Assembly: GCA_045597685.1 (NCBI GenBank)
Contig: JAZLKO010000008.1
Location: 3,097-67,096, forward strand
Source of the DNA: Prevotella sp.
GTDB taxonomy: Bacteria; Bacteroidota; Bacteroidia; Bacteroidales; Bacteroidaceae
Length of the DNA: 64,000 nucleotides
Direction of reading: 5' to 3'
In this document: piece after piece, positions 24,927 to 44,998 of the stretch
Layout: every line of letters starts with the position of its first letter
Position numbering within the stretch: the stretch's first letter is position 1
Translations under genes and position numbers: made by a program
Notes under the pieces: generated by a model
Databases searched by the model: none
Seen by the model: the letters and a program-made list of their open reading frames with translations, nothing else
What the model was told of the DNA's origin: nothing

Positions 24927-25019
24927 AACAATTATGTTTTCGCAATTTGTGTGCAAAGATAGAAAAAAAACTACATTAATGAATTAAAAATTAATAGTTA
25001 AAAATTAATAATTCATCTT

Positions 25020-25619: not shown

Positions 25620-25690
25620 TAACTCCTCTAACTTCTTAACTCCTTAACTCCTTGTGAGTTTCGAAAGTTTGAAAAACTTGCGAAAGCTCC
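25620..25690. repeat. Reverse-complement copy of the octamer block
   Basis: TTAACTCC repeats plus GAGTTTCGAAAGTTTGAAAAACTTG, the reverse complement of the 9685-9730 block. Confidence 0.8.
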
Positions 25691-26199: not shown

Positions 26200-26289
26200 G
26201 TTTTTAGTGAATAAAATATAAAAAACGTTAATTTTTTAATGAAGAATCGTCTGCTTGTTATACCTTTGCGCAAATTTTCGCTATTTGAT

Positions 26290-27186
26290 ATGAAAAGAAT
26301 GTTGGTTTTTATGCTTGCATTTGTAGTATTACTCTCATGCAGCATATCGTCTCAGGCTGTTATAATAGCAGATTCTCTAAATCTGAAAATTCACTTTAGA
26401 GTGAATTCTTCACAGATTGACATGACTTATCTTAATAATCGGAAGCTGCTCAGCGAGTTTATTTCAGAGATGAAAAAAGTAATGTCCGACCCATCGTGTC
26501 ATATAAATAATGTGGTCATACATTCCAGAGCATCTCTTGAGGGTGGTAATGAGAATAATCAGGAGCTTAGTCTCAAGCGTGGTGTAAATTTAATGTTATA
26601 CCTTCAAAGTGCGCTATCTCTTCCTGCAAAAACATTTGTATTAGATGCTGTAGGAGAGGACTGGGCGGAATTCAGAAATATTGTTGAGAAAAACAATATA
26701 CCTGATAGAGCAGACATACTGGATGTTCTCGACAGATACCAGAAATACCTGGATGGTGAACAGACCTTTGTTTATGGTGATCCGAAGAAAGATCTGATGG
26801 ACCTGAATGGAGGACGTACCTGGAAGTGGCTTATGGAATATGTGTTTCCGGAATTGCGCAGCACTGGCAACAATACAGTCTGCAGGTTCACTCGTGATGT
26901 TAAACCGATAGGTTACGCTGCAGAAAGAGTCTGTGACACAGTGGTTGTTATCCATAAGTATGTTATCGAGGTTGATTCCACAAAGATATCAAAAAATACT
27001 CCTTTGAAGGTGGAGATTGTGATACCTGGCGAAGTTGATACATCTAATAGTAATCAGATTAAAGTGGGCAACACAATCATTGATACATCATCATTTGGGC
27101 CTAACGTTGAAGTGAGGTCGCCAAATGAGAAAAATGTCGATGTAACCGTTGATAATAAGGTAGTTCTCCCACGAAAAAGGGAGTAA
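26290..27186 (+). CDS. OmpA-like periplasmic-domain protein of the type V pilus locus
   Basis: Signal peptide, IHFRVNSSQID, RASLEG..NQELSLKRG, GEDW, VFPELR; similar to the region usually fused to DUF3575. Confidence 0.7.
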   Translation: MKRMLVFMLAFVVLLSCSISSQAVIIADSLNLKIHFRVNSSQIDMTYLNNRKLLSEFISEMKKVMSDPSCHINNVVIHSRASLEGGNENNQELSLKRGVNLMLYLQSALSLPAKTFVLDAVGEDWAEFRNIVEKNNIPDRADILDVLDRYQKYLDGEQTFVYGDPKKDLMDLNGGRTWKWLMEYVFPELRSTGNNTVCRFTRDVKPIGYAAERVCDTVVVIHKYVIEVDSTKISKNTPLKVEIVIPGEVDTSNSNQIKVGNTIIDTSSFGPNVEVRSPNEKNVDVTVDNKVVLPRKRE

Positions 27187-27460: not shown

Positions 27461-28402
27461 ATGATGTCAGGTACGTGTTTTTTTCTTCATCTAAGAAAGC
27501 TTTTGTCTGAGATACGCAGTATTATCAGACCTTGTGCCGACTTTTTGATTTTTGCCACTGGGGGGGGTAAATCAAAAAGTGTTGGCATTTTCCGCCTGCC
27601 ATTCATTTTTGTCCTGCTTTTCTTCGCTACATCTTTAAGCGCTCAGACCATCTTGCGGTCTAAGGGTTCAAAGGATACAGTCTTCATATACAACAGCATC
27701 AAAATCAAGGTTAACGGTGATTCTGGAAACTCAGGAGTCAGTGGCGCATCTGTTAGCACTAACAAGGCTGCGCTTTCTGATTCGGTGCAGAAAAAGAAGA
27801 AGAAAGAAAAGATTATCGAGGAATTCGACAGAAAACTTATCTTCGCCTTGCGCAGCAACTTGTTGGTTCCATTTTTAAACGTGGGAGTACAGGTTCCTAT
27901 TGGAAACAGATTTTCAGTAGGTATTGATTGGTATTACCCTTTCATTCGCAGGGAATGGTCAGAAAACCTCGACCAGACCAACTGCTTCGAGGCACTTGGT
28001 CCTGGTGTTGACTTCCGCTACTATTTTGGTAAGAAACATTCAAAAGGCCGTGAGAACTGGCTCTACCGCCTCTCTGGGCATTCTGTGGGAGTGTTCGGCA
28101 TGTTCGGCAGATACGACTGGGAAAGGGAGTTCTGGGGGCATCAGGCAAACTTCGTAAATGTGGGAGTGGACTATATGTGGTCGTCGAGAATAGGTAAGAA
28201 GAAGCGTATGCGTCTCGACATGAGCATAGGAGTAGGAGGTTTCTTCTCTCATGGCACGGAATATCATGTGTTCCGTCCGAAAGGACTTGCCTACAGAACA
28301 GGAAAGAAGAAGAACATCACGTGGATTGGTCCCAACAAGGCAACCATCTCACTGGTGATTCCAATATATACTAAAATAAGGAAGAAAGCGGTAAATGAAT
28401 AA
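27461..28402 (+). CDS. DUF3575 outer-membrane beta-barrel protein
   Basis: FALRSNLL, GHSVGVFG..YD, LDMSIGVGG, WIGPNKATISL; start codon uncertain. Confidence 0.85.
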   Translation: MMSGTCFFLHLRKLLSEIRSIIRPCADFLIFATGGGKSKSVGIFRLPFIFVLLFFATSLSAQTILRSKGSKDTVFIYNSIKIKVNGDSGNSGVSGASVSTNKAALSDSVQKKKKKEKIIEEFDRKLIFALRSNLLVPFLNVGVQVPIGNRFSVGIDWYYPFIRREWSENLDQTNCFEALGPGVDFRYYFGKKHSKGRENWLYRLSGHSVGVFGMFGRYDWEREFWGHQANFVNVGVDYMWSSRIGKKKRMRLDMSIGVGGFFSHGTEYHVFRPKGLAYRTGKKKNITWIGPNKATISLVIPIYTKIRKKAVNE

Positions 28403-29351
28403 GTTTCTGGCATTAGTGGCAACAATGATTTGCATTTCCGGATGCGACTTCATTCCCCTTTACGACCTTGAGGGTAATGTGATGATATACATAGACTATA
28501 ATCTGGAGCAGCAGGTAACAGTACGCGATGGTTTCGACCCTACTGGCGTGCCGACATTCAGCGAGAAAGTGCACGGGAAAATGCCCGAGCACGTTCAGGT
28601 GCAGTTCTATGAAGTCGGCACACATACCCTTGTGAAAGACGAGTTCCTTGATGCCGAGGGAGGCATGATGAGCGTACAGCCAGGATTCTACGACATCATT
28701 ATCTACAGCCTCGAAACCAAGGTCACTCAGGTTGAAGGCACAACGCTCAGCGGAATGCTTGCAAATACAGAGATGACCCACAGCCTGTATAGCATCGGAG
28801 GCTATTACGACGTGATAACCGAGCCCGACCACCTTTATTTAGCAACACTCGAAAACGTGGAAGTGCTCCCTGCTATGGACGATTTGAACACCATAACCTA
28901 CGTCTATGCCGATGCATCCAGCATCTTAGAAACATGGACCTTCGAGATGCTCAATGTGGATGGAATGGCATACATTGCCAGTTGTGAACTCTACATAACC
29001 AGTCAGGAAGGTCGCGCCTTTCTCTGGGGCGACAGAAATGGAAACAAGCCAGGAGCACTGAAAATAAGTGCCTATCCCGACTTCCAGGACAAGCGGCTCT
29101 ACTCCGTATTCAATACCTTCGGCAGATACCCCGACTACAGGGATGGGGTAAGTGCCGTACTTAAGGTTACCAACACGGCAGGCAATGAGTATATCTACGA
29201 GTTCGACGTCACCGACCAGATTGACGACCCTGGCAACACAGGTCACAACATCGTGGTAGATCAGCATTTCACCATTCCCGATGATGGAGGCACGGGCGGT
29301 TTCGAACCAGTCGTTGACCCATGGTGGGACCCGATAATAGTATCAAATTGA
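28395..29351 (+). CDS. DUF5119 / Mfa2-FimB-like pilus anchor lipoprotein
   Basis: Lipobox ISG-C, PGFYDIIIYS, EPDHLY, FNTFG, C-terminal GGFEPVVDPW; no TR cleavage motif. Confidence 0.8.
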   Translation: MNKFLALVATMICISGCDFIPLYDLEGNVMIYIDYNLEQQVTVRDGFDPTGVPTFSEKVHGKMPEHVQVQFYEVGTHTLVKDEFLDAEGGMMSVQPGFYDIIIYSLETKVTQVEGTTLSGMLANTEMTHSLYSIGGYYDVITEPDHLYLATLENVEVLPAMDDLNTITYVYADASSILETWTFEMLNVDGMAYIASCELYITSQEGRAFLWGDRNGNKPGALKISAYPDFQDKRLYSVFNTFGRYPDYRDGVSAVLKVTNTAGNEYIYEFDVTDQIDDPGNTGHNIVVDQHFTIPDDGGTGGFEPVVDPWWDPIIVSN

Positions 29352-29424: not shown

Positions 29425-31449
29425 ATGAAAAAAACTTTTTTCCTGCTTGCAGCAATGACATTGTTTGTGTCATGTGCAGATGTAGTAGATGTAGCAGAAG
29501 TTAGCGGAGGTGGAGAGACTGGGACAACATCACAGGAACTCACTCTCAGTACAATGGCCAATCAGACACGTGCCATTGCAGAAGGTACACAGGTTCCAAC
29601 TGGCAATGTCATCGGACTTTTTACCAATTTCTATTCGGATGTTAATTCCAGAGATTACTCTAATTATAATGGCATCAGAAACTTTGGATATGATTTCAAA
29701 AAGAATTTGTGGCGTGGTGCCAGTTCTGTTCAAAGTCTTTCTCAAGCATTGCAGAACTTGAGCAATGCGAACACAGATTATAGTTGCTTGCTTGACGAGT
29801 TGCTGGCAAATTTTTATGCAAGCACACCATTCTATTGGCCTGTAGGTGAGAATATCAATATGGACTACACCGCTTATTCGTGCAGCAACCTTGTATCTTT
29901 AGCAGGTCAGATGCTGAATCTTTATTTCAGCGACGAATTGGCTGGATTAGGAGGAGACATATCTGGAATGTTGGAGGATTATGTTACATTGAATCCTACG
30001 AGGGTTAATCCTAACCGAATGGACATTGGATACAATTTCAGCGCGTTCAACTATCTTCCTTATGCAATGGAATATGCACTTGATGGCGCTTATATAGAAC
30101 CAGAGGCAATAGCTATTATTCTCGCACTCTGCGTACTGACAGACACACCTACCGGATTCCAGGGTGTTGACATCCATCTGGAGGATTTGCATTCACTCAT
30201 CATGGAGTATCTTCCTAACGGACAACTTGATATGGGTAAAATTGAAGCTTTGACATCAGACAAGAATGGATTACGCAATTTATTGGAAGAGAAGGTTAAA
30301 GAATTCAACCTTGACGAGATTTTCACATTCGTTCAGGATTATGATGACGCTTGCCGCCAATTGAAAAACGAATCCATCATCGACAGCGGTAAGGAAAATT
30401 TATTACCGCAAGAGAGAGTGGAAGAAGTGATGAGTAAAGCATACTGGATTTTCATGACACGTGTACCTTTGATAAGCAAATATATTCAGGACGACCTTAT
30501 GTATGCTTATGACAGAAACCTCAGAAACGATGCCAAAGGCACGATTAAGGCAACTTTCAACCATGCAAAGTCATGGGTTAAGGTTGTTGTGAATAATCAG
30601 ACCAACAAAGACATCTTCGTTTCTGGAATAGCCTTCAACGACGTGAAGACAAGCGGTACACTTATTGTTGACAATAGCAAGTCTGGGTTTGAGGCATACT
30701 GGGATTTCACAAAGCCTATACATCAGCAGCAGCCAGACCTGCATGATACTAACGTAGATCCTTTTGAGAGTTATGAAGCCATAAATCTTGACGGGGAATC
30801 ACAGTCTGGTTCAAACGATAAACCAAACGAGGCAAAACCTTCGAATGCAAAAGATGTGAAGGGTGAACAAAAACAAAAAGAATCAGTAGTAGGTTTTATT
30901 CCTGATATGTATTATGTTCCAGCTGGCTGTTATGGTCCTGCCCAGTTAATTGCACCATGCGATTTCCATACATCGAATGATGCATCAAGTCCGAAACACG
31001 GATTAAAATTCGACTTCCTTAGTGGCGATCAGTCATTCGATGCCAGTGTGGCAAACAATCTTGGCGGAGCAATGTTCCCAGCTCAGGAACCAGGAAAAAT
31101 CGCTATCGCATATTATGCTTGGGATGGTAAGAACCAGCCTGAAACTAATGGCGCTTATGTCAGCCATACGCTCGAAATGGGAAGCACGGCACAAGAGTGG
31201 GATAAGTACTTTGTCGAGGATAACCTGCATAAGGTTGAACTGAATCTGCCTCGACTACGTTGGGAGATGGGCAAGGTGTATATCTATGTCATCAACATTT
31301 CTGATAGTGAAATCACCATCAATCCTACTGTCACAGAGTGGGAGAATAGTGAATATAATCCTATTATCGTTCCTGAAGAGAGTGGAATGAGAAGTGGCGA
31401 TCCGACTGAGACCTTCGGCAACGGCGATACTTCTAACTGGGGATTTTAA
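29425..31449 (+). CDS. Fimbrillin family (Mfa1-like) lipoprotein, probable stalk pilin with a large insertion
   Basis: Lipobox FVS-C, QTR, YWP, ATFNHAKSWV, WEMGKVYIYVINI, C-terminal INPTVTEW donor-strand-like segment. Confidence 0.82.
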   Translation: MKKTFFLLAAMTLFVSCADVVDVAEVSGGGETGTTSQELTLSTMANQTRAIAEGTQVPTGNVIGLFTNFYSDVNSRDYSNYNGIRNFGYDFKKNLWRGASSVQSLSQALQNLSNANTDYSCLLDELLANFYASTPFYWPVGENINMDYTAYSCSNLVSLAGQMLNLYFSDELAGLGGDISGMLEDYVTLNPTRVNPNRMDIGYNFSAFNYLPYAMEYALDGAYIEPEAIAIILALCVLTDTPTGFQGVDIHLEDLHSLIMEYLPNGQLDMGKIEALTSDKNGLRNLLEEKVKEFNLDEIFTFVQDYDDACRQLKNESIIDSGKENLLPQERVEEVMSKAYWIFMTRVPLISKYIQDDLMYAYDRNLRNDAKGTIKATFNHAKSWVKVVVNNQTNKDIFVSGIAFNDVKTSGTLIVDNSKSGFEAYWDFTKPIHQQQPDLHDTNVDPFESYEAINLDGESQSGSNDKPNEAKPSNAKDVKGEQKQKESVVGFIPDMYYVPAGCYGPAQLIAPCDFHTSNDASSPKHGLKFDFLSGDQSFDASVANNLGGAMFPAQEPGKIAIAYYAWDGKNQPETNGAYVSHTLEMGSTAQEWDKYFVEDNLHKVELNLPRLRWEMGKVYIYVINISDSEITINPTVTEWENSEYNPIIVPEESGMRSGDPTETFGNGDTSNWGF

Positions 31450-31493: not shown

Positions 31494-33572
31494 ATGAAAA
31501 AGAATATCATATTTGCGGCAATAGTCGCAGCAGTAACATTAGTTTCTTGTTCTCAGCAGGAACAGACTGCAATGTTAGACAAAAATAGTACCTTTACTGC
31601 CAGTATTGAACAGGAATTTACCAGAACCACACTTGCTTCCACAAACAAGGTGAACTGGGAATACAATGACAGAATCAATATCAACGGAGCAGAATATATG
31701 GCAGCGCCTAAAAACCCAGCCACCAAAGCTGTTTTCCAATATATGAAAGGTGACCTTCCAAAGCGCACACCTTATTGTGCCATCTATCCGGCAAACCTCT
31801 ATACATGGAATGGTTATGAGTTTCCTTCTATATTAGAGTATAAGGAAGGTAGCCTCAACACTCCGATGTATGCAGAGAGCAACACCGAGGAACTCTGCTT
31901 CAAGAACATCTGCGGTGTGCTTCATCTTTCACTCAATGGAATTGGTAAAGTTGCACGTATTACCGTCTCTGCCGATCAGAATATTTGCGGACCATTTGAA
32001 GTGGATGAATCGATGACTGCCAGACTTGTTGCTGGTATTGATAATGCTGAAATGATGAACCACAATACCGTTACCCTTGATTGTGGGGAGAGAGGCGAAC
32101 TGCTTGACGAGTGGGATTATAAGGACTTTTACATTCCACTTCCCGCTGGTGAATACACTGGTCTGATGATTACCATCACTGGAACCAACGGTGCAGAGTT
32201 TGTAAAGGTTGCAAGTAATAATGTCAATGTACAAAGAAATTCCATTTATTCCCTTAATTTTACGACCGTCTTTACGCTCAAGGAGACTCTCGCTGACTAT
32301 TTTCTCGGTTTGTCGGCAGATCAAGCCAATCTCACCGCTGCTACCGATGAGGCTATGTGGTCAATGACCCAAAGTCAGATTGAGGCATCAAAGAACAATC
32401 CGCAGAAATTCTTCCTTCCTGAAATCCATACATGGGACAATGCCTATGCAGCAATTGAGTTAATCGACAAAGGCTTGGCATACATTAATAACGGTATGCT
32501 TACAGATGTGCAGGGACTTACGAGTGCAGAATTGTATTTCCTTGAGGCATATCTGTATTTCGAACTTTTCAGGGCATACGGTGGTGTGGTGCCAGTATTG
32601 TCAGGAGACTTTACCCCGACTACCAATGACGAAATGGTTGGGATAATTACAGAGTTAGGAGAAAGGTGCATTAATAATATTAGTACCTTATCTTCTAAAA
32701 CCATCACACTTGTTAATAATGATGATAAGCACATCGAGATGATTCGTCCTACAAAATGGGCAGCACAAGCCCTTCTGGGTCGTCTATATCTTTATTACGC
32801 TTCGCCTCTGTTTAGCTCAACAAGTGACCAATCAAGATGGACTAAGGCATCGACTTATTTAGACGCAGTTATTAATTCGGGAGAAGTTGTCCTGCAGAGT
32901 TCTTATGAAGGTATTTGGAATGCGTGGGGCGAAGATAGCAATAATAAGGAAATACTCTTCGGTGTTCGCATCAAAACAAAAGACAATGCTTATGAAGGAC
33001 TTCACCCGACACAGAGCATAGTTGACCAGTATGGAGATGGTAGTGGTGAAAAAACATTCGGTATGGAATATCCGAATAATAGCATTCCGTTATATACTGA
33101 GTGGGATAAATCGCCATACAATTTCATTAAAGACCATCGTTTTGAAGTTACCATTCAAACACCTTTATCAACTGCAGGTTATTCACTTCTAAAACACGTG
33201 GCTCATATTATGCCGATTATCCGTTATGGCGAAGTTCTGCTTAATTGTGCAGAAACATATTTTAACACAGGAAATAATACAAAGGCTCGCGAATATGTCA
33301 ATCAAATTCGTCAGCGTGCAGGCCTTGCGCCAATTTCTCAACTTGATAATGAGGATATTGACATTATCAAGCAGGAGCGCCTTCTTGAACTTGCGTTCGA
33401 AGGTCACCGCTTCTGGGATGTGCGTCGCTGGAAACAAGGAGAGGATTGTTTCGGAATAATCAATGCAGCAGTTGTGACGGAACAGAATGAAGGACCTCTG
33501 TTGCTGACACGCACACCGATAAATCGCGCATGGAGCGAGAAGTATTACTTCTATCCTGTATCTCGAAAATAA
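31494..33572 (+). CDS. Pilin-like N-terminal domain fused to a SusD/RagB domain
   Basis: Lipobox LVS-C, FTRT, AIYPA, FKNICGVL; then AELYFLEAYLYFELFRAYGG, TKWAAQALLGRLYLY, IRYGEVLLNCAE, VNQIRQRAGL, ERLLELAFEGHRFWDVRRWK. Confidence 0.85.
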   Translation: MKKNIIFAAIVAAVTLVSCSQQEQTAMLDKNSTFTASIEQEFTRTTLASTNKVNWEYNDRININGAEYMAAPKNPATKAVFQYMKGDLPKRTPYCAIYPANLYTWNGYEFPSILEYKEGSLNTPMYAESNTEELCFKNICGVLHLSLNGIGKVARITVSADQNICGPFEVDESMTARLVAGIDNAEMMNHNTVTLDCGERGELLDEWDYKDFYIPLPAGEYTGLMITITGTNGAEFVKVASNNVNVQRNSIYSLNFTTVFTLKETLADYFLGLSADQANLTAATDEAMWSMTQSQIEASKNNPQKFFLPEIHTWDNAYAAIELIDKGLAYINNGMLTDVQGLTSAELYFLEAYLYFELFRAYGGVVPVLSGDFTPTTNDEMVGIITELGERCINNISTLSSKTITLVNNDDKHIEMIRPTKWAAQALLGRLYLYYASPLFSSTSDQSRWTKASTYLDAVINSGEVVLQSSYEGIWNAWGEDSNNKEILFGVRIKTKDNAYEGLHPTQSIVDQYGDGSGEKTFGMEYPNNSIPLYTEWDKSPYNFIKDHRFEVTIQTPLSTAGYSLLKHVAHIMPIIRYGEVLLNCAETYFNTGNNTKAREYVNQIRQRAGLAPISQLDNEDIDIIKQERLLELAFEGHRFWDVRRWKQGEDCFGIINAAVVTEQNEGPLLLTRTPINRAWSEKYYFYPVSRK

Positions 33573-33614
33573 AAAAGCATTAATTTATACATGAACTTTT
33601 CTAATAGGGTAAAT

Positions 33615-34970
33615 ATGAAAATATATAAATTCATGATAGCAGCATTTGCTGCAACGATGGCACTTACGTCATGCACAAAGGATAGTGCAGATATGAATGG
33701 TGCCAACACACAACCAGACGGGACTCGTGTTATTACAGTATCTTTCAACAACACTACCCGTACTTATCTTGATAGTGACGGACTTACTCCTCGGTTCGAA
33801 GATGGAGACATGATTTTGGTTTCCAACGGAACTACCACAAAAATTCTTCCAATCAAAATGGATAAAGGAATACCAACATTCAGCACCATTCTTACAGGTG
33901 AACTGACTGCAGTCTATCCTGCAAGTGCTGCCGTGGTGGAAAATAATGTGATAAAGGGTGTCAAGGTTCCTGCTGAACAAAGCGGAAGATTTTCCGATGC
34001 CAATATCGCAATCGCAGAGCATATTATGGATGATTCTGAATATGGAAATAATCACGCATATTTTCGCAATGCTACCGCTATCTTGAGGTTCTATGTCCAT
34101 TACAGTGTTGGCGTTGAACGACTTGTGATAGAGAGTGCATCTGAAAATATTGCAACTGGCTCTAAAACAATCAGTATAGGAGCAGATAAAGATATGCTGA
34201 GCGATAACGTTGAAGACGCGACGTTGTGCTATGTAGCACTACTTCCTGGTGAAATTCAGAAGCTGGACATCACCTCATACGCACCAAGTCAGACCGAAAC
34301 CGATGGTATCGTGAAGAAAACGTATGAGAATATCAAAATCAAGGCAGGACAAATGGCAAGTGTCTTCATGCCTTATTATGTGCAAATCGGCACCCAGAAA
34401 TGGGCATATTGCAACCTCGGTGCCTTCCTGCCAGAAGAACCGGGCTATTACTATTCATGGGGTGATAGCAAAGGCCATTTCCTGAACGGAAATTGGGAGG
34501 ACTATTATTTTACTCCAGAAGCTTATCCTGCATCTGACCTTGTTACAAATATCGATCCTATGTCTAAATATGATGCAGCTCATGTTGCTTTAGGCGGCAA
34601 GTGGCGCATGCCTACACCTGAAGAATGCAAGGTCCTTACGGGACGGAATCCAAGTTTTGATAATTCCAAGAAAGTGTGGCGCTTTTCTGATAACATGAAT
34701 ACTCTTTATCTTCCTGTTACTGGTTATTACGAAAAGGATCAGAAAAGCGGTATTGAGAATAATCAATGTCGCTATTGGACATCAGAATATGTTGATAATG
34801 GAAAAGCTGTAGCCTTAAAGATTAACGGTAAATTACTTGGTGAGGGGCAAATTGGAGCAGAGATGCAAATTGACGCAGATACGCGTTTTAATGGCTTCTC
34901 CATCCGCCCATTCTTTGATGAGAGCAAAGAAGTTGACATTGACCCATACAAACAAGGTCCTAACTTATAA
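33615..34970 (+). CDS. Pilin-like lipoprotein 1 with a C-terminal CLec-like (DUF1566/FISUMP-like) domain
   Basis: LTS-C, TRT, LTAVYPA, QSG.F.DANI; KWAYCNLGA, DAAH, WRMPT, YWTS, GFSIRP. Confidence 0.8.
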   Translation: MKIYKFMIAAFAATMALTSCTKDSADMNGANTQPDGTRVITVSFNNTTRTYLDSDGLTPRFEDGDMILVSNGTTTKILPIKMDKGIPTFSTILTGELTAVYPASAAVVENNVIKGVKVPAEQSGRFSDANIAIAEHIMDDSEYGNNHAYFRNATAILRFYVHYSVGVERLVIESASENIATGSKTISIGADKDMLSDNVEDATLCYVALLPGEIQKLDITSYAPSQTETDGIVKKTYENIKIKAGQMASVFMPYYVQIGTQKWAYCNLGAFLPEEPGYYYSWGDSKGHFLNGNWEDYYFTPEAYPASDLVTNIDPMSKYDAAHVALGGKWRMPTPEECKVLTGRNPSFDNSKKVWRFSDNMNTLYLPVTGYYEKDQKSGIENNQCRYWTSEYVDNGKAVALKINGKLLGEGQIGAEMQIDADTRFNGFSIRPFFDESKEVDIDPYKQGPNL

Positions 34971-34988
34971 TCAGGAGAATATCAGATT

Positions 34989-36509
34989 ATGAAAATGACG
35001 ATTAAATATATCGCAGCACTCTTCGCTGCAGGTGCCTTGCTGGCATCCTGTACGGATGAGGCTTTCGAAAATCAAAACATTTCTAATCCTCAGTCCGAAG
35101 GCACTCGCGTAATTGCGGTGTCCTTCGGTCAGCAAACCCGTACCGCCCTCGGTGATGATGGACTTACGCCTGAGTTTGTGGGAGGGGAGAGTGTATTAGT
35201 ATCCAATGATGAGGCTATCGAATACTGTACGGTTACAATTTCTGGCGAAAAGACAATTATCACCACCAGTCTTAAAGGTGACCTCACAGCAGTAAATCCA
35301 GTCCGTGCCGCAAAAGTTATAAAATCAGAAAAAACAGGAGGCAATATTATCGACCCTGACGACGTGCTAATATCCACCAATCAGTCCGGTACCTTTGCCG
35401 ATGCAAATATCTGCATGGCAAGAATGAAGGACGGTGAAGAAAAGATGACATTCCACAACAAGACCGCCATCTTGAGATTTTATGTGGATAAAAGTATAGA
35501 TGTTTATTACATACGCGTAATAGGAAAAGATATTGCAGGCGAAAGTAAAAAAAGTATAGATGTTTTTGACGAAAAAAAGCGGTCGTTGTGTGAAGCCACT
35601 GATGACCCTAATAAGCGGATTTGTTATGTGGCAGTATCACCTGGCGTCTCTACCCGTTTGTTGGAGTTTTCAGCGGACACTAAAACTCAGGGAACAGTTA
35701 CCAGAACATCATCGGCAAAAAATGTCACTCTTGAAGCAGGAAAGATGTACAATGCCTTTATACCTTATTACATTAAGGTAAACGTGGGTACAGAAGATAA
35801 CCCTACCTATCAGAAATGGGCATACTGCAACATTGGTGCCTTTCTGCCAGAAGAAGCTGGAGAATATTTTGCCTGGGGCGAAGTGAAGGGGCACAAACCG
35901 GATCTCAGTATATCACCGGAAAGTAATGGTAATATACGTGGAGCATTTACCAGTGACTTTAATGCTTTTGACCATAGCGATGTCAGATATCCTGATTCAT
36001 ATACACCTTCAAAAGGCTTTCAATATAGTAATACACCATATTACAACGGCACTTATTGGGATAAGTACAGTGGTAATTATAATGAAAAACTTTTGCCTGA
36101 AGATGATGCAGCCAATGTTAACTGGGGTAATGGTTGGCGTATTCCAACCAAAGCCGAACTGGATGCATTGAAAAACATTTCCAATGAAGTTGTGTCAGAT
36201 TATAGGTCATCAGGAAAATCCGGAAGAGTTTTCACGGATTCTGATAAGAGAACTGTTTTTTGGCCTTTTACCGGTTATGGATATGGGTTGGAACTTTGTG
36301 ATGCATTCAGCAACAATGATTATTATTGGTTCACATCACCATACGTTGGAAATTCGAATGCCATATATTATTCCGATTTTGGAAATACAAAGGAACAACA
36401 TTATCAGACTCAAACTCGATTTGAAGGCCTTAACATCCGCCCTATCTGTGATAAGACATTTGATAATTTGCCTATAGAAGAATATTCTGATGAAGGGAAT
36501 CTGGAATGA
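34989..36509 (+). CDS. Pilin-like lipoprotein 2 with a CLec-like domain
   Basis: LAS-C, QTRTALGDDGLTPEF; WAYCNIGA, DDAA, WRIPT, GLNIRP. Confidence 0.8.
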   Translation: MKMTIKYIAALFAAGALLASCTDEAFENQNISNPQSEGTRVIAVSFGQQTRTALGDDGLTPEFVGGESVLVSNDEAIEYCTVTISGEKTIITTSLKGDLTAVNPVRAAKVIKSEKTGGNIIDPDDVLISTNQSGTFADANICMARMKDGEEKMTFHNKTAILRFYVDKSIDVYYIRVIGKDIAGESKKSIDVFDEKKRSLCEATDDPNKRICYVAVSPGVSTRLLEFSADTKTQGTVTRTSSAKNVTLEAGKMYNAFIPYYIKVNVGTEDNPTYQKWAYCNIGAFLPEEAGEYFAWGEVKGHKPDLSISPESNGNIRGAFTSDFNAFDHSDVRYPDSYTPSKGFQYSNTPYYNGTYWDKYSGNYNEKLLPEDDAANVNWGNGWRIPTKAELDALKNISNEVVSDYRSSGKSGRVFTDSDKRTVFWPFTGYGYGLELCDAFSNNDYYWFTSPYVGNSNAIYYSDFGNTKEQHYQTQTRFEGLNIRPICDKTFDNLPIEEYSDEGNLE

Positions 36510-36526
36510 TAAATAAGATTATAATT

Positions 36527-38542
36527 ATGAAAGTATCACATAGGCTTATAGTAGCAATGCTCACCGTATGTGTGATAATGACATCTTGTACGGACTCATT
36601 TATTGGTGAACAGGAAAATTTAGATATGCAGGTGGGAGGCACCCGCGTAATTACGGTTTCATTTGACTCTCAGACTCCGACACGTACAACGCTTAGTGGG
36701 TTCAAACCAACGTTTAAAGAAGGAGATGAGATTATGGTCGCCACAATAGATGGTTCTGGCACTCCGGAAATATGCAAAGTTGTGGAAGGCAATAATAAGA
36801 GATTGGTGATACAAACCAAGCTTCAAGGAAGGCTCAAAGCTGTTTATCCAGCGGAATCTGCGAAGATGGATGGCAAGATGATTGATGGTGTAAAAGTTAA
36901 ATCCATTCAGTCAGGTAAATTTGAAGATGCAAATATCTGTATGGCAACGATGAATGGTACGGATGATTCCTTTCTCGAATTTATAAATCAGACCGCAATT
37001 TTGAAATTTTATATAGGTGAGGACATAGGTGTGACATCTATAAAGGTGACGAGCAGTGAAAGTTACATTACCGATGATGAAAATACCACCAATTCTATTA
37101 CTGTTACAGCCACAGGAACTTCGCTGTATGAAGATATGCCAACCAGTGGGCAGCCAAAGAATATCTGTTACGTTGCTATAAAGGAAGGCGTAAGTGCCAA
37201 TACCCTTACGTTCACGGGCATCACATCTACACAAGGAGAGGTCAATAAGACAATAAAATCAACTGCTCAACTCAAAAAGGGAGGTATGTACAATGCTTTC
37301 ATACCTTATTATATAAAGGTAAATGCAGGTACGGAAGAAAACCCTATTTATCAGAAATGGGGTTACTGTAACATAGGAGCCTTCCTGCCTGAAGAAAAGG
37401 GTTACTTTTTCACGTGGGGTAATGCCGATGGTCATTGGCTGAACGGGAATACGGATAGTTATGTTTTCAACTCTGACTCATACAGTGGTACATCAGGAAG
37501 TCAAATACCAGAAGGTGATAAAATTGACCCAACTTCCGACAATGATGCAGCCCACGCTAACTGGGGTGATAATTGGAGAATGCCTACATCTTCAGAATTG
37601 GGTAAGCTTATTAGCACGTCCAGTTATACTGCTCAGGGCATTTCAGGGAAAAAAGGTTATTATTGCTTTAATGGCAAAATTTTTCTACCTACCGCTAGTA
37701 AGCAGTCTGGAAGTAATTGGAGCGAAGGTGAAGATTGTGTTTTCTGGTCATCAGATGCAGACAATAAAAGTAATGGTGCCAGTTGGGTTGGCAGAGATCC
37801 AGATGCGTACACGTCAGGAGAAGAAGATAAATATTACGGTATGGCCATCCGTCCTATATATGAAGAACCAGTTGTTATTCCAGGCGAGTTCACGGTCAAT
37901 AGCGATAGTAAAAAAGTGAAATTTGCGAAAGGTCTTTTGTATTGGGATGGTGACTCTTTTGAGTTTGAAGAGAATCAGCTTGCGTACGCTACGACATGGG
38001 ACGCATCGCATATAAGCCATTTCTATTGGAGTAAATCAGAATCAGTTGCGAGAGCCTCATCTTACAGCGATGCAAGCGCGAGTGCTAATGATGTTCTATT
38101 CACAAATGCCACGGAGACCACAGCAAACCCAAATTTTACAGTAAATGGAGAGACAGGGAAGTATCGAGCACTCTCACAGGGTGAGATGGAGTATCTTATT
38201 CAAAATAATATTTGCTATAATAAAGTGACAATAGGCGATGATTATTTCATTGTCATTGCTACGCCTAACTGTTCGGATAAGTTGAAGTATTCATATACCA
38301 TTGAGGAGTGGGCCGAAGCAGAGAAGGCTGGTTTGATAAGTATTCCATATGGTGGATGGAGATCCAATAATGACATTAAATCGCGCAATTCTTATATGTA
38401 CATTTATACGGATAGTCCTAAAGGCAGTACAGACGCTTATTCTGTACTATATTATACAGATGGACGTTGTTGGTTAGATCATACCGAACCACGTTATTAT
38501 GGGTATATCATCCGTCTGGTTTGTGATGTAGATAATAAATAA
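36527..38542 (+). CDS. Pilin-like lipoprotein 3 with two CLec-like domains
   Basis: MTS-C, TRT; WGYCNIGA...GMAIRP; second domain PGEFTVN...KFAKG...GYIIRLV. Confidence 0.8.
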   Translation: MKVSHRLIVAMLTVCVIMTSCTDSFIGEQENLDMQVGGTRVITVSFDSQTPTRTTLSGFKPTFKEGDEIMVATIDGSGTPEICKVVEGNNKRLVIQTKLQGRLKAVYPAESAKMDGKMIDGVKVKSIQSGKFEDANICMATMNGTDDSFLEFINQTAILKFYIGEDIGVTSIKVTSSESYITDDENTTNSITVTATGTSLYEDMPTSGQPKNICYVAIKEGVSANTLTFTGITSTQGEVNKTIKSTAQLKKGGMYNAFIPYYIKVNAGTEENPIYQKWGYCNIGAFLPEEKGYFFTWGNADGHWLNGNTDSYVFNSDSYSGTSGSQIPEGDKIDPTSDNDAAHANWGDNWRMPTSSELGKLISTSSYTAQGISGKKGYYCFNGKIFLPTASKQSGSNWSEGEDCVFWSSDADNKSNGASWVGRDPDAYTSGEEDKYYGMAIRPIYEEPVVIPGEFTVNSDSKKVKFAKGLLYWDGDSFEFEENQLAYATTWDASHISHFYWSKSESVARASSYSDASASANDVLFTNATETTANPNFTVNGETGKYRALSQGEMEYLIQNNICYNKVTIGDDYFIVIATPNCSDKLKYSYTIEEWAEAEKAGLISIPYGGWRSNNDIKSRNSYMYIYTDSPKGSTDAYSVLYYTDGRCWLDHTEPRYYGYIIRLVCDVDNK

Positions 38543-38554
38543 CTACAGAATCGT

Positions 38555-40888
38555 ATGAGATTACTATTTAAATTAAACATAGTAAAACAATATTTCCGCT
38601 TAATCCTCGCTGCCATCGGTACAAGTATATCACTGGTATCCTGCTCTGATGAATTTTTCAGCGGTGAGAATGGTATAGCTCAGCCTGAAGGCTCGCGTGT
38701 GATTGCAATATCCTTTGGTACGCAGACTAGAACAGCCCTCGGTGATGATGGGCTGACTCCTGAGTTTGTGGGCGGAGAGATGATATTGGTATCGAATGAT
38801 GAAACAACCCAAGAATGTCAGGTTACATTTTCGGGTGAAAAGGCAATTATCACCACCAGTCTTAAAGGTACGCTCACAGCAGTATATCCAGCGACAGCGG
38901 CACAGATTGAAAATAATGTAATTGCAGGGGTCAAAGTCTCCACTGAACAGTCTGGTAAAATTGCCGATGCCAATATCTGTATGGCGAAGAATATCACAGA
39001 TGCTGCGACTTTTGTGAATCAGACGGCAATCCTGAAATTCTATGTTGGTGAGGAGATAGGAGTGACTTCTATCAATGTAACGAGTTCTGGAGAAGAAATA
39101 GCAGATGGGTCGAAAACAATAACGGTTGCAGCTTCTGGAGGCAAAACGCTGTATGATAATATGCCAACCGGTCAGGACAGGAGAATATGCTATGTGGCAG
39201 TAAAATCTGGCGCGAATGCAAATACGCTCACGTTTACAACAAAAACCAACACACAAGGTCAGCAAACCAAAACAGCAACGGTTGATGCCACCCTTGCAAT
39301 AGGTATGATGTACAATGCCTTCATACCTTATTATGTAGAGGTCGGTGACCAGAAATGGGCATACTGTAACATCGGTGCCTTCCTTCCTGAAGAACCAGGT
39401 GAGTATTTCGCATGGGGAGAGGTAAAAGGTCACAAAGCGGATTTCAGCATATCACCTGATAATGATGGTAATATACCTGAAGCATTTGCCAGTGACTTTA
39501 AAGTTTTTAACCATAGCGATGCCAGATATACTGGTACTTATAATTCTTCAAGTGGTTTCGCATTTTGCAATACGCCATACTATAATGGCACTTCTTTCGA
39601 CAAGTACACAGGTTCAGATGGTAATACACTTCTACGAGAAGATGATGCAGCCAATGCTAATTGGGGCAATAATTGGCGTATGCCGACCTCACAGGATTTT
39701 TATAATTTGTATGATGCCTGTGCCATTAACGGCTATGGCATAACCACATACGCAGGAACTGAGCGCGGAGAAGTCCCTACATTTGGCAAGGGAGTCTATT
39801 GGTGCGGTAATTACGACGGGGTAGCAGGCTGTCTTTTCTGTGACGGCACCAACAAGTTGTTCTTCCCCGCTATGGGTTGTGGCAGTGGTACCAAACTCAT
39901 CGATGTAGGCAAATACGTCCGCTATTGGTCAAGTACTGAAGCGAGTTATGATCATTACGCGTACCGCCTGGACATCAGCGACAGCGATGTCGATCTGCAG
40001 CTCTACGGCAACCGTTTCGACGGCAACTCCGTCCGCCCTATCTATGATTACACAATTCCCGATGGGGCATTGCCTGGAGTGTTCTCAGTTGGTCCTAATG
40101 AAGAAGATAAGGTGCACTTCTCTAAAGGAAACCTGTATTGTGACAATTCAAATTCCAGCGCTCCAATATGGGGTTTTGAAGAAAAGCAGTATTATTTCCG
40201 TACTATCTCTGGTAAGGGCAAGTGCGATGCTTCTGGATACAGTATAAATACTGGTACGCTCACTAATCACTGGGGACTTTTTGGATGGTCGTCAGAAAAT
40301 GATGATAATTATGGTATGAATTTGTCAGACGATTATAAAGATTATTCAGGAGAATTCAAGGATTGGGGAGAGAATATTGGCGGAGGAAATATTTGGCGGA
40401 CAATGTCAATTGATGAATGGATATATTTATTAGAAACACGCAACGCTTCCACAATAAACGGTGTAAGTAATGCTCGATATATGTTCTGCAGAATTAAGAT
40501 AGATGATTCTAATTCCGTTCCGGGCATGCTTGTTTTTTCAGATGATTTCAGTTGGCCAACAGGAACTGCTCCTGTAGAATCTGCTGCAACCACGATCAAT
40601 GGAAATTATGGTTCTTATACCGAATATGAAATAGCAGAATTTGAGAGTTTGGAGTCTGCTGGAGCCGTGTTCCTTCCTGAAGCAGGACAACGAAAATCAG
40701 GTACCGAAATTATGGAAGTGGATATTTACGGTGGATATCGGTCATCTACGGCCATTGATGAACAATATGCTCGTTACCTAAGTTTTTATTATACCACAGT
40801 TGATATGAACTGGATGACAGATTCACGACATTTTGGCGATCTGTCCGATTGGTCACGAATGTCAAATAAACATAATGGAATTGTCTGA
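38555..40888 (+). CDS. Pilin-like lipoprotein 4 with two CLec-like domains; last codons apparently frameshifted
   Basis: LVS-C, QTRT; YWSS...GNSVRP; PGVFSVG...FSKGNL; SVRLV motif present only in another frame at 40840-40854. Confidence 0.8.
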   Translation: MRLLFKLNIVKQYFRLILAAIGTSISLVSCSDEFFSGENGIAQPEGSRVIAISFGTQTRTALGDDGLTPEFVGGEMILVSNDETTQECQVTFSGEKAIITTSLKGTLTAVYPATAAQIENNVIAGVKVSTEQSGKIADANICMAKNITDAATFVNQTAILKFYVGEEIGVTSINVTSSGEEIADGSKTITVAASGGKTLYDNMPTGQDRRICYVAVKSGANANTLTFTTKTNTQGQQTKTATVDATLAIGMMYNAFIPYYVEVGDQKWAYCNIGAFLPEEPGEYFAWGEVKGHKADFSISPDNDGNIPEAFASDFKVFNHSDARYTGTYNSSSGFAFCNTPYYNGTSFDKYTGSDGNTLLREDDAANANWGNNWRMPTSQDFYNLYDACAINGYGITTYAGTERGEVPTFGKGVYWCGNYDGVAGCLFCDGTNKLFFPAMGCGSGTKLIDVGKYVRYWSSTEASYDHYAYRLDISDSDVDLQLYGNRFDGNSVRPIYDYTIPDGALPGVFSVGPNEEDKVHFSKGNLYCDNSNSSAPIWGFEEKQYYFRTISGKGKCDASGYSINTGTLTNHWGLFGWSSENDDNYGMNLSDDYKDYSGEFKDWGENIGGGNIWRTMSIDEWIYLLETRNASTINGVSNARYMFCRIKIDDSNSVPGMLVFSDDFSWPTGTAPVESAATTINGNYGSYTEYEIAEFESLESAGAVFLPEAGQRKSGTEIMEVDIYGGYRSSTAIDEQYARYLSFYYTTVDMNWMTDSRHFGDLSDWSRMSNKHNGIV

Positions 40889-40908
40889 TAAAAAACATAA
40901 TAAGTAAT

Positions 40909-43245
40909 ATGAAAAAAACCTACAAACTCATTATCGCAGCCATTGCCATAAGCATGGCACTGGCATCCTGCTCTGATGAGCTTATCACCGGAGAGAATGA
41001 CTATGCTCAGTCTGAAGGCTCGCGTGTAATCGCAATATCCTTTGGTTCACAAACCAGAACTGCCCTCGGTGATGATAGGCTGACGCCTGAGTTCACGGGT
41101 GAAGACGAGTGGATCAGGGTTTCCAACTCGTTTATGAGTGAGAACTGCAAGGTGGTGGTGTATCAGAATGGTAGAGCATCCATCACAACGAGTCTTACTG
41201 GTGCTCTCACAGCTGTATATCCAGCAAGTGCTGCTCAAATGGATGGAGGTCGCATATCTGGGATTTCCATTTCTCCATATCAGGATGGTACTTTCGCATC
41301 AGCCAACATCTGTATGGCAGAAATGGAGGATGAGAAGGAAGAGAGCCTGACATTCCATAACAAAACTGCCCTGTTTGCAATCACTCCTCCAGAAGAGACA
41401 ACACAACTCAAGGTCACTTCGCTCCGGCCAGTCGAGAACGGTGGAGCTCGTTCAGGGTATTCATTGCCGATTACGACTGGACAGGATTTCGATGCCATAA
41501 CCATCACAACCACCGGGAAAGATCCTGACGACAAGGTGTATCTCTCCCTTTGTCCAGGTGTCAATCTGAGCGACCTGTCGTTCGAAGCAGAATTTGCGAC
41601 AACAGGCACAGGCTCTATCAAGGGGATCCCGATGAAGGCAATTGAAGAGGCTAAGGCTGAGAATACTACAGTAGGTGGCACCATATACACAATCAACGGA
41701 AACAATTGGCATGAATATGTAACCATTAACGGAGTGAAATGGGCTACGATGAATATTGGAGCCAGCAAGTCAGAAGAGTATGGTAGATATTTTGCTTGGG
41801 GTGATATTATAGGGCATGTACCAACTGGCGGTAGTTTTATTTTCCCTACCACTAATCCTGATCCGTCAAGATATACTGGTTCTTGGAACGCCTCGAAAAG
41901 TTTTGATCATTGTAATGCTCCATATTACGATGGTAAGGACTACTCAAGCGGTAAATATAATGTTACCAACAATGGTAAGACAGAACTCGATCTCATAGAT
42001 GATGCAGCATATATGAATTGGGGCGGTGCTTGGCATATGCCAAAAGGAGGAGGCAATAGCGAATTCAATTATTTTATAAGTAACTCCACTTGGACAGACA
42101 ATTACAATAATACAAACGTCAGCGGTCGGGTGGTCACAGATGGACAGTTGTCATTGTTTTTACCAGCTGCCGGTGATGGGTATCAGGTGACCAACTATAA
42201 TCCAGGCTATATGGTTCACTATTGGACAAGAACTCTTTCAAATTCAAGCTCTGGAGACGGTCAAAATACAAATGCATACATGCTTCATGCACCATCTGGA
42301 CAAGCATTATTAAATAATGAAACAGGCCGTTTCCGTGGTAATTCAGTCCGTGCCATCGTCAACGATGAAGATTCAAGAATGAAAAAAGTCATCTGGGAGA
42401 ATGACGGCTCGCACGGGGGTATATCTTGGAGCGGTGATTATCGTTTTTCAAATGAAGAGCGTACTACAGGAGAAGAGATTTATGCCATTCCGATGGATGA
42501 ATGGAATAATGTCATAAAGAGTGGCACTTTTTATCTGTTGGCAAGGCTTGACGGTTGGGCTCAAGTCAGAATCACAACTGGTTGGTGGAGTACTGTTTGG
42601 ACAGGAAATGATATTACCCCTGGGGACAGTCACTATACCGACAATGGAGACGGTACTTTTTTGATTGAAATCAATTTTGCGGGGGATGCTATTCTTGATA
42701 TGTTGGATGAACAGCATCTGCTCTTCACGGGTGGTGGTTACACTCCGTTGGAATTGTATTATTATGCGGCACCTCTGAAACCGGCTCCAAGAGAACTCGT
42801 GCTTTGGAAAGGAGAGGCGTATGCCGATGATTTTACCAATCAACCATCTTTTCTTGACAATTATGGTCAGGAATTTTTGGCCGCAGGAGCCAAAGCAGGA
42901 CGTGAAGTACGCTTCTACATTACTCCAACGGAAACAGATTGGCACTTTGAGATAGTGGAAGGCCATTGGGGATGGGTCACGGCCTGGAACGACCTGACTG
43001 ACGATGAACGAAATGAAAAGATGATTTACCGCAGTTATTGCTCACCATTGAGCGATACAGAGGGCGGCAAGTATATACATTGGGACCTTGATGCCAATGG
43101 AGGCTATGTTCCCCTTACCCTTACGCAGGAAATGCTGGATGTGATGGTTTCTCCAAACCCCGATGTCGATTGGGGCGGAACCTTCATAGGCAATGGTGAC
43201 AATGTCATTGTTACCAAAATCACATTGCTGTCCGAGGAAAACTAA
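40909..43245 (+). CDS. Pilin-like lipoprotein 5: CLec-like domain plus two SGBP-like carbohydrate-binding modules
   Basis: LAS-C, QTRT; KWATMNIGA...GNSVRA; then Trp-rich modules VIWENDG...TTGWWS and LWKGEAYADD...EGHWG...NGDNVIVTKITL. Confidence 0.75.
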   Translation: MKKTYKLIIAAIAISMALASCSDELITGENDYAQSEGSRVIAISFGSQTRTALGDDRLTPEFTGEDEWIRVSNSFMSENCKVVVYQNGRASITTSLTGALTAVYPASAAQMDGGRISGISISPYQDGTFASANICMAEMEDEKEESLTFHNKTALFAITPPEETTQLKVTSLRPVENGGARSGYSLPITTGQDFDAITITTTGKDPDDKVYLSLCPGVNLSDLSFEAEFATTGTGSIKGIPMKAIEEAKAENTTVGGTIYTINGNNWHEYVTINGVKWATMNIGASKSEEYGRYFAWGDIIGHVPTGGSFIFPTTNPDPSRYTGSWNASKSFDHCNAPYYDGKDYSSGKYNVTNNGKTELDLIDDAAYMNWGGAWHMPKGGGNSEFNYFISNSTWTDNYNNTNVSGRVVTDGQLSLFLPAAGDGYQVTNYNPGYMVHYWTRTLSNSSSGDGQNTNAYMLHAPSGQALLNNETGRFRGNSVRAIVNDEDSRMKKVIWENDGSHGGISWSGDYRFSNEERTTGEEIYAIPMDEWNNVIKSGTFYLLARLDGWAQVRITTGWWSTVWTGNDITPGDSHYTDNGDGTFLIEINFAGDAILDMLDEQHLLFTGGGYTPLELYYYAAPLKPAPRELVLWKGEAYADDFTNQPSFLDNYGQEFLAAGAKAGREVRFYITPTETDWHFEIVEGHWGWVTAWNDLTDDERNEKMIYRSYCSPLSDTEGGKYIHWDLDANGGYVPLTLTQEMLDVMVSPNPDVDWGGTFIGNGDNVIVTKITLLSEEN

Positions 43246-43365
43246 AACAGCAAATTATCTAAACAGTGAATTCGCACTCCTACAAATTTCCCATGCTACA
43301 CAAAATAGATAATTACCTAAAAGTAACTATAAAATAAATGCTGAAAATAATATAAATAAAATAGT

Positions 43366-44940
43366 ATGAAAAGGACCTATAAACTCATTCATGCAGTTAT
43401 CGCTACAAGTTTGGCATTTACCTCCTGTTCTGATGAACTTTTCACTGGAGTGAATGGCTACTCGCAGTCCGAAGGCTCGCGCACTATCGCTGTGTCCTTC
43501 GGCCCGCAGACACGTACTGCCCTCGGTGATGATGGACTGACTCCTGAGTTTACGGGTCAAGACAAAATATTCTTGTGTACCAATCCTAAGAATCCAGACG
43601 AGGTGAAAACTCAAATTTGCACGGTGAATGTCGATAAGACAGGCAAAGCCACAATCTCTACAAACCTTGCTGGTGAACTGACTGCTATTTATCCTGCAAA
43701 AGGTGCTGAATATTTCGATAAACTTGAGCGTTACGACATAGGTGTACCCCAAATACAGTCTGGTAAATTTGCCGATTCCAATATCTGCAAGGCAACCATT
43801 GCTGCGGATGAAAGTACTGCTCAATTCAAGAATCAGTTTGCACTGTTCGTCATCACTCCTCCAAAGGGTACTCAAAAGCTCACCATCAAGTCACTCCCGA
43901 CAATAGGAGATGACGGTCAGCGTTCAGGAGATGCGAAATTTGTCAATAATCTCGCATCAGGCGATGGTATGTATTATGTGACGGTTGAGACCCCACCTGC
44001 CGATGGTAAATATTATGTTGCCCTTTTCGATGGTGCCAAGCTTAGTGACCTGTCGTTCGAAGCGGAATTTTCGACAGCAGGCACTGGCTCAATCAAGGGA
44101 ATCCCGATGAAGGCAATTGAAAAGGCTAAGGCTGTAAATAGTATAGCAAGTGGCACTATGTACACCATCAACGAAAACAACTGGCATGAGTACGTCACCA
44201 TCGGTGGCAAGAAATGGGCAACGGAAAATATCGGTGCGACCGACTCAGATCCTTACGGCACATATTTCATGTGGGGAGCAGTTGAGAAGGCATACACCAG
44301 TCTTTCAAACAAAACCTTCACATTCGGTGACAAGCCTTCAAGTTACGTTAACTCAACTTGGAATGCAAGCAAAGGTTTTGTTTGGGATAATTGCAATTTT
44401 ACCGATGGTGTATATATAAAAGATTCTAAAATGGCTGTCTTCACAAAGTACACCAGCAATAATACCTATGCGAAAAGCGGCACTGCTGACAATAAGACTG
44501 TCCTCGACCTTACCGACGATGCGGCGTATGTCAATTGGGGCGGTGCCTGGCGTATGCCTACGGGAGGAATTGATGCCACTGCGGATTTTACCGCTTTGAC
44601 TAAGGCCTGCAAAAATTATACTTCAGGAACGTTAACATATACAGGCAAGGTCACCGAAGAACCTACATCTAAGGGAATATATTATTACAATGTGTCAGGC
44701 AGCAAGGGTGTTTATCTCGTTGCCGACAGTAATCATAAGTTGTTCTTCCCAGCTGCAGGTGGTGGCCGCAGTGAGGATAACAAGCTCTTCAATTCTGACA
44801 ATCACGGCAACTATTGGTCAAGTACCCTCTGCCCGTCCAATCAAAACGCATACATCTTTCGCATCGAGGGTGATTTACTCAATCCACAGAACAACTTCAT
44901 GCGTTGCCATGGCCGCACCATCCGTCCCGTTGCAGATTGA
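43366..44940 (+). CDS. Pilin-like lipoprotein 6 with a terminal CLec-like domain
   Basis: FTS-C, QTRT; KWATENIGA, DDAA, WRMPT, GNYWSS, GRTIRPVAD*. Confidence 0.8.
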   Translation: MKRTYKLIHAVIATSLAFTSCSDELFTGVNGYSQSEGSRTIAVSFGPQTRTALGDDGLTPEFTGQDKIFLCTNPKNPDEVKTQICTVNVDKTGKATISTNLAGELTAIYPAKGAEYFDKLERYDIGVPQIQSGKFADSNICKATIAADESTAQFKNQFALFVITPPKGTQKLTIKSLPTIGDDGQRSGDAKFVNNLASGDGMYYVTVETPPADGKYYVALFDGAKLSDLSFEAEFSTAGTGSIKGIPMKAIEKAKAVNSIASGTMYTINENNWHEYVTIGGKKWATENIGATDSDPYGTYFMWGAVEKAYTSLSNKTFTFGDKPSSYVNSTWNASKGFVWDNCNFTDGVYIKDSKMAVFTKYTSNNTYAKSGTADNKTVLDLTDDAAYVNWGGAWRMPTGGIDATADFTALTKACKNYTSGTLTYTGKVTEEPTSKGIYYYNVSGSKGVYLVADSNHKLFFPAAGGGRSEDNKLFNSDNHGNYWSSTLCPSNQNAYIFRIEGDLLNPQNNFMRCHGRTIRPVAD

Positions 44941-44998
44941 ATCATGATAGCTTTTTTAACTACGATTGGAATTGAATTATATAAACAGATATAAAATC

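Follow-up and report, generated by a model that had tools for sequence, protein, structure and literature searches.

Architecture of the fusion protein

The stretch of DNA considered here (contig JAZLKO010000008.1 of assembly GCA_045597685.1, 64 kb in length, hereafter referred to as the window) contains an uninterrupted open reading frame at positions 31494 to 33572 of the plus strand that encodes a lipoprotein of 692 residues. Its N-terminal portion is a pilin-like module, and the remainder is a SusD/RagB domain. The features of the gene, together with those of the operon in which it lies, are listed in Table 1.

Table 1 Features of the fusion gene and of its operon (positions in the window)
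Feature	Coordinates	Strand	Basis
Fusion gene: 692-residue lipoprotein, pilin-like module and SusD domain	31494..33572	+	Open reading frame, translation; architecture kept in ~20 full-length homologues
Signal peptide and lipobox (MKKNIIFAAIVAAVTLVSC, Cys19)	31494..31550	+	Read from the sequence; C19 invariant in four alignments
Two-sandwich module with predicted type V pilin fold, mature residues ~20-260	31551..32273	+	AlphaFold model, Foldseek, hhalign
Predicted anchor strand FTASIEQ (residues 32-38) and loop with T43-R44-T45, candidate maturation site	31587..31628	+	Model, conservation
Complete SusD/RagB domain, residues 262-692	32277..33569	+	Pfam, Foldseek, secondary structure of the model
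First operon gene: 315-residue secreted protein, weakly OmpA-like	26239..27186	+	Pfam OmpA E 0.0012, below cut-off
DUF3575 protein	27461..28402	+	Pfam DUF3575 E 5.5e-10; synteny conserved
DUF5119 lipoprotein, pilin-like fold, candidate anchor/base subunit	28395..29351	+	Pfam DUF5119 E 1.2e-11
674-residue Mfa-like lipoprotein with ELTLSTMANQTR motif, candidate stalk/adaptor and strand donor	29425..31449	+	Weak Mfa_like_1 match
Seven paralogous lipoproteins with pilin-like N-module (GTRVIxVSFxxQTRT) and other heads (Lcl_C/FISUMP-like, GLUG, others)	33591..47002	+	All-against-all BLASTP, hhalign, Pfam

The initial annotation of this DNA placed hallmark SusD/RagB motifs at residues ~265-692, and a complete domain is indeed found there. 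Both of its Pfam families match above their respective cut-offs, namely SusD-like_3 at residues 263-433 (41.2 bits, cut-off 27) and SusD_RagB at residues 573-689 (111.2 bits, cut-off 23.1). Since the SusD-like_3 match begins at residue 263 with position 19 of the profile, the SusD part lacks only its own signal peptide and lipobox region. A full-length model, calculated with AlphaFold2 from an alignment of 19 sequences, has a moderate predicted local distance difference test (pLDDT) score of 73. In this model residues 32-258 are β-rich and those from 262 to the end are helical, with the SusD helix beginning ~4 residues beyond the last pilin strand. The Foldseek list for the model is headed by 49 SusD/RagB chains, and its best matches in the PDB are SusD structures (3qnk with an E-value of 2e-17, BT3013, BT4246, SusD from Bacteroides thetaiotaomicron, and RagB).

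Approximately 20 full-length homologues, which are 38-77% identical to the protein over 100% of its length and display the same fusion architecture, were identified in NCBI metagenome-assembled genomes (MAGs), the ENA, and Logan assemblies. In the 19 that were aligned, the junction is conserved within a continuous reading frame, and both SusD Pfam domains are matched in every one. The pairwise identities of the two halves, which average 52% and 49%, co-vary with a Pearson r of 0.72, and thus the halves have evolved together since an old fusion event. The GC content is continuous over position ~32280. An artefact, whether through chimerism of the contig or through loss of the stop codon between a pilin gene and a SusD gene, is exceedingly improbable given that separately assembled metagenomes share the junction, that the two halves co-diverge, and that the composition shows no break; misassembly at the junction is ruled out by the conservation of the fusion across these assemblies. 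The pilin-SusD fusion proposed at the outset is real, and its distribution extends well beyond this contig.

The aligned family divides into "long" forms of 669-701 residues, which include the query, P0007/8, P0009, P0015, and P0022, and "short" forms of 625-655 residues. Most of the long forms have insertions in the SusD head that correspond to residues 515-560 and 650-675 of the fusion, and these may be loops of the ligand site.

The N-terminal pilin-like module

The N-terminus of the fusion follows the pattern of lipobox, first strand, and loop that has been described for type V pilins (PMC13655056). The lipobox reads LVSC19, as had been recognized from the sequence. A separate AlphaFold model of residues 1-265, for which 44 homologues were available, has a pLDDT of 83 and a predicted template modeling score of 0.78. 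Here the first strand runs from residue 34 to 38, and the TR motif of the initial annotation, T43-R44-T45, falls in the loop that follows, residues 43-49 of which have pLDDT values below 50. The column occupied by R44 contains a lysine or an arginine in 85/85 representative clusters and in 44/44 closer homologues.

Residues ~1-260 had been described as having fimbrillin-like strands, and the predicted fold agrees with this description. The top of the Foldseek list for residues 1-265 consists of Bacteroidota type V pilin structures that align over their whole lengths with a probability of 1.00. They include 3t2l (E-value of 5e-8), 3ufi (2e-7), 4k4k (4e-6), 4rdb (PG0181; 7e-5), and the accessory pilin Mfa3 (5nf4; 5.5e-4), and further matches are to 4h40, 3up6, 4gpv, and a second accessory pilin, Mfa4 (5dhm). 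For 3t2l, 3ufi, 4k4k, 4rdb, 4h40, 5nf4, and 5dhm taken together, the E-values range from 5e-8 to 6e-3 and the template modeling (TM) scores from 0.27 to 0.49. We take 4rdb to be Mfa4 as well. Modeled on its own, the module thus folds like the solved type V pilins, and the model represents it as a complete small two-sandwich pilin body. No significant Pfam or NCBIfam match was obtained for residues 1-264, and a profile of the module run against the sequences in the PDB matched the signal peptide alone. Only a few relatives of the module reach the Mfa_like_1 family (1/19, 2/21, and 3/85 in three sets, with a best E-value of 1.2e-5).

Gene neighborhood and the absence of SusC

In the textbook view, SusD forms the lid over the SusC barrel, and polysaccharide utilization loci (PULs) are defined by a susC and a susD gene that lie side by side. 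When all of the open reading frames of SusC size in the window were scanned, no Plug or TonB-dependent receptor domain was found, which agrees with the earlier statement that the locus encodes no SusC. Likewise, no SusC lies beside the fusion in the related loci L001, L002, L003, L008, L009, and L011. As a control, the nearest canonical SusD, P0051, which is 29% identical to the SusD part of the fusion, is encoded directly behind a 942-residue Plug-domain protein.

The genes from 26239 to 47002 are all located on the plus strand, and most are separated by gaps of 0-120 nucleotides. A gene for an Mfa-like protein of ~680 residues lies directly 5' of the fusion in all six loci read, and the order DUF5119, Mfa-like protein, fusion, and further heads recurs in L001, L002/L003, L008/L009, and L011. 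The DUF3575 gene also precedes in L001, L002, and L003, where the contigs extend that far, and in the same three loci an orthologue of the 315-residue secreted protein holds its position. The true start of the DUF3575 protein is probably internal to the reading frame listed in Table 1; the family is a predicted outer-membrane β-barrel.

The DUF5119 lipoprotein matches PDB entry 5cag by sequence with an E-value of 4.6e-7, and 5cag is also among the pilin-fold matches of the N-terminal module of the fusion. Its C-terminus, GGFEPVVDPWWDPIIVSN, is nearly identical among orthologues and conforms to the pattern GGFEPVVDPWW[DE]P.I[IV].N. The 674-residue lipoprotein likewise has a conserved C-terminal region, ...EITINPTVTEWE...PIIVPEE, for which the family pattern is EITINP.V..WE...PI..PEE, as well as a conserved motif at the N-terminus, and 12 of its 41 homologues match Mfa_like_1 (PF13149). 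On the basis of these patterns, the two C-termini are candidate donor strands. When the profile of the fusion's N-terminal module was aligned with these two proteins using hhalign, the similarity was confined to the signal peptide, so neither contains the same module. Searches of the PDB with phmmer returned nothing useful for the 674-residue and DUF3575 proteins.

The seven paralogous lipoproteins downstream of the fusion are mutually homologous by all-against-all BLASTP, and the N-terminal module profile aligns with the first of them (33591-34970) over 226 columns with an hhalign probability of 96.6% and an E-value of 6.5e-10. Because the paralogues share the module, the operon encodes eight proteins with one pilin-like carrier and different heads.

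Several other elements were observed upstream of the operon. The 1.3-kb gap that precedes it contains a 30-nucleotide inverted repeat, 97% complementary, whose arms (25135-25164 and 25615-25644) enclose 450 nucleotides. This arrangement might act as an invertible, phase-variable promoter; a recombinase gene was not observed adjoining it. Palindromic TATCTAAGGGATATCTAAGG repeats follow at 25737-25824. Just upstream, and divergent from the operon, is a BspA-type leucine-rich-repeat protein (22755-24956, minus strand; LRR_5 with an E-value of 7e-78). LRR_5 is also found elsewhere as a head on the carrier module.

Breadth of the carrier and origin of the SusD heads

A profile was built from six N-terminal modules, and representative clusters were counted at E-values of 1e-3 or lower. 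By this measure 12,662 clusters match, 7,322 of them at ≤ 1e-10 and 697 at ≤ 1e-30. In the best 150 clusters, whose proteins range from 234 to 1300 residues, the module is positioned at residues ~1-265 in all but P0190 (267-472). The heads that follow it are diverse. For most of 85 representatives the head has no Pfam match, and the assigned ones are Lcl_C (8), Fib_succ_major (6), Big_2 (2), and Flg_new_2, DUF4957, LRR_5, and SusD (1 each). Both Lcl_C and Fib_succ_major are presumably C-type-lectin-like. In closer relatives the heads are CBM_4_9-like, Laminin_G_3 combined with a metallophosphatase, or Endonuclease_NS. The SusD fusion is therefore by no means a singular case: its head belongs to a large assortment borne by a pilin-like N-terminal carrier that is very common.

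At a locus in a related MAG (L004, 903-5400), a carrier-module protein with a faint CBM_4_9 match is followed by a lipoprotein of 687 residues with a faint Mfa_like_1 match and a GH5 cellulase domain. Judging from these matches, carbohydrate-active enzymes appear to be joined to pilin-like modules at this locus.

A maximum-likelihood tree of SusD domains, for which the sampling was limited, places the main fusion heads in one clade with a support of 100/99. Their sister (96/97) is P0026, in which the SusD head is preceded by an unrelated, long helical N-terminal region and whose gene is part of an array that also encodes pilin-module proteins (L010). The next outgroup is P0051, which is canonical and SusC-paired. 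Another family of fusions (P0024/P0025, ~770-790 residues) has a head from another SusD lineage, grouping with the canonical P0057/P0063/P0078 at 99/99, and it holds the same slot, directly after the genes for a DUF5119 protein and a 703-residue Mfa-like protein (L011). A single origin of the fusion heads does not fit this topology, which points to capture of SusD heads onto the pilin-type carrier at least twice, from different SusD lineages.

In L010 (4543-9625) there are two adjacent lipoproteins of 788 and 896 residues, each with a SusD head on a long, alanine-rich helical N-terminal region and then a β-rich segment. The predicted helical region provides SusD heads with a stalk of a second type.

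Proposed function

The reading that we favor, and which we regard as somewhat probable, is that the fusion is a tip-type, type V pilus-like lipoprotein that displays SusD as a SusC-independent binding head. It is favored on account of the processing-type N-terminus, the full pilin body, the lack of a free C-terminal strand, and the distal binding domain, and because the gene comes after those for pilin-fold proteins whose C-terminal strands are conserved. That there is no free C-terminal donor strand follows from the start of the SusD helix immediately after the last β-strand. The absence of such a strand together with an extra distal domain is a criterion for tip pilins (PMC13655056, PMC12632263). 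The known tip-class type V pilins also resemble the fusion in having a lipoprotein signal, a double β-sandwich body, and an anchor strand after which comes a basic residue, the cleavage site (a predicted one in the fusion). They too are encoded downstream of anchor- and stalk-like genes, for which the operon of the fusion has candidates. In one of them, the B. fragilis tip adhesin BfrT, cleavage at R43 was demonstrated by mass spectrometry (bioRxiv 10.1101/2024.11.15.621889).

Tip pilins with ligand-binding heads are already known. The fusion differs from them in that its head is a ~430-residue, all-helical SusD/RagB domain rather than a C-type lectin, a vWA domain, or a β-sandwich. In addition, the basic site is mostly lysine in its relatives, and its operon has the DUF5119 and ~680-residue Mfa-like genes in place of recognizable FimA/Mfa1 and FimB/Mfa2 genes.

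From these features we infer that the fusion is exposed at the surface, cleaved, and built into a polymer by strand exchange, and that it binds a ligand, in the following manner. The protein would be exported and lipidated at Cys19, and a surface protease would then cut after R44. The groove vacated by the anchor strand would accept the C-terminal strand of the upstream 674-residue Mfa-like protein, which in turn would be held by the DUF5119 base subunit. The whole SusD domain would stand in place of a free C-terminal donor strand, as the distal head, and would be placed on a short fibre, off the membrane, where it might bind a glycan or a peptide as an adhesin or capture module without any SusC barrel. 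The seven downstream paralogues would provide alternative heads for the same scaffold.

Several observations weigh against a tip-type assignment. Among 95 sequences with the strict motif, 80 have a lysine and 15 an arginine at the basic site; the known maturation proteases, by contrast, are specific for arginine. The operon contains no gene for a small stalk pilin of the FimA/Mfa1 type, and no Pfam fimbrillin family is matched in the fusion. The TM scores of the best pilin matches are only moderate (0.41-0.49 over 253-300 columns), as is expected for two-domain proteins in which the angle between the domains varies. The DUF5119 protein has a conserved arginine of its own (VTVR44[DE]G in four orthologues), 27 residues past the lipobox cysteine, a spacing close to that in the fusion; hence this candidate anchor may be processed too, unlike the textbook anchor pilins, which are uncleaved. 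Finally, some genes for the N-terminal module are solitary and have neither an anchor nor a stalk gene within 10 kb (L006), and so the module may act as a lipid-anchored "pedestal".

This last point leads to the main rival, which we consider rather unlikely: the fusion would be an uncleaved, unpolymerised, lipid-anchored surface binding protein, comparable to the surface glycan-binding proteins of PULs, with the pilin fold as no more than a rigid spacer, or pedestal, by which the SusD head is raised clear of the capsule. A module that recurs as a generic carrier across 12,662 representative clusters, whose heads are of very different kinds, and that is at times encoded with no pilus genes nearby, accords with such a role, as does the missing canonical small stalk pilin. 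The sister SusD head on its non-pilin helical stalk (L010) suggests, moreover, that what counts is how far the head stands from the membrane. A mere spacer, on the other hand, would have no need for a Lys/Arg that is 100% conserved in the flexible loop after the first strand. Also against this rival are the tight linkage of the fusion to the DUF5119 and ~680-residue Mfa-like genes with their conserved C-terminal strands, and the cleavage of homologous tip adhesins of Bacteroides at the corresponding arginine. Surface glycan-binding proteins (SusE/SusF-like) are surface lipoproteins that hold a binding module off the membrane on β-sandwich domains, and to that extent they are functional analogues of the fusion. 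Their genes, however, are found in PULs beside susC/susD, and the SusD fold is not their binding module, whereas the spacer of the fusion is a pilin fold with a conserved, predicted processing site.

It is improbable that the fusion still functions as a SusC lid by pairing in trans with a SusC-like transporter encoded elsewhere, its pilin module being an accessory extension. The resemblance to the SusD/RagB lids of SusCD complexes such as RagAB is considerable: the SusD domain is complete, with the family's fold and strong motifs, including the C-terminal ER..EL.FEGHRFWD.RRW, and the nearest canonical relative is SusC-paired. Yet the SusC and SusD genes are normally adjacent, and in six independent loci of pilus-operon type the fusion follows a gene for an Mfa-like protein and has no SusC beside it. 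In addition, the lipidated Cys19 does not directly precede the SusD fold as in those lids; the pilin module of ~240 residues intervenes, and cleavage at R44, if real, would remove the membrane tether of the head. Two independent SusD lineages in the same slot of a pilus operon likewise argue against a lid.

The tip-type reading can be extended, tentatively, to a more general proposal. The SusD fold may have been removed repeatedly from the SusCD transporter and set at the tips of short fibres that resemble type V pili, as well as on stalks of other kinds, in rumen and gut Prevotellaceae-like bacteria, where it would act as a long-reach head for glycan capture or adhesion. The operon would then provide eight interchangeable heads on one scaffold, as a pilus-based, cellulosome-like device for attachment to substrates that operates upstream of, or without, TonB-dependent import.

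Implications

No description of such a fusion emerged from the accessible literature, whether on SusD in connection with pilins, fimbrillin, and type V pili or on SusD proteins that are orphan or unpaired, and the initial annotation likewise knew of none. The same holds for the recurrence of the SusD head on a pilin carrier and for its SusC-less setting. A conserved SusD domain that has neither an adjacent SusC nor a lipid anchor of its own, and that is found on a pilin-type carrier at least two times and on a helical stalk once, suggests that the SusD fold can work as a binding module in its own right. Programs that predict PULs automatically could list genes of this type as orphan SusDs. The ligands of Bacteroidota type V pili have been called largely unknown in recent reviews (PMC12632263), and the fusion offers a tractable case for addressing what these pili bind. 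It also illustrates the modularity of the pilin carrier in uncultured Bacteroidales, which we guess to be inhabitants of the herbivore gut.

Host and other genes of the window

The RelA/SpoT protein encoded in the window is 95% identical to metagenome proteins but only ~63% identical to those of Prevotella sp. kh1p2 and Prevotellaceae bacterium KH2P17, and a partial homologue of the fusion is annotated from a Prevotellaceae MAG. By these matches the host is an uncultured, Prevotellaceae-like member of the Bacteroidales. The guess as to its habitat is based on the names of the matched organisms and on neighboring genes for dockerin-bearing proteins. No cohesin was identified in the 64-kb window. 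The dockerin-bearing neighbors are three secreted proteins, encoded between 51427 and 62594, each of which has a dockerin type I domain at its C-terminus. One is a C10 peptidase whose prodomain is Inhibitor_I69, another is an Fn3_assoc/CHB_HEX_C protein, and the third is ricin-lectin-like.

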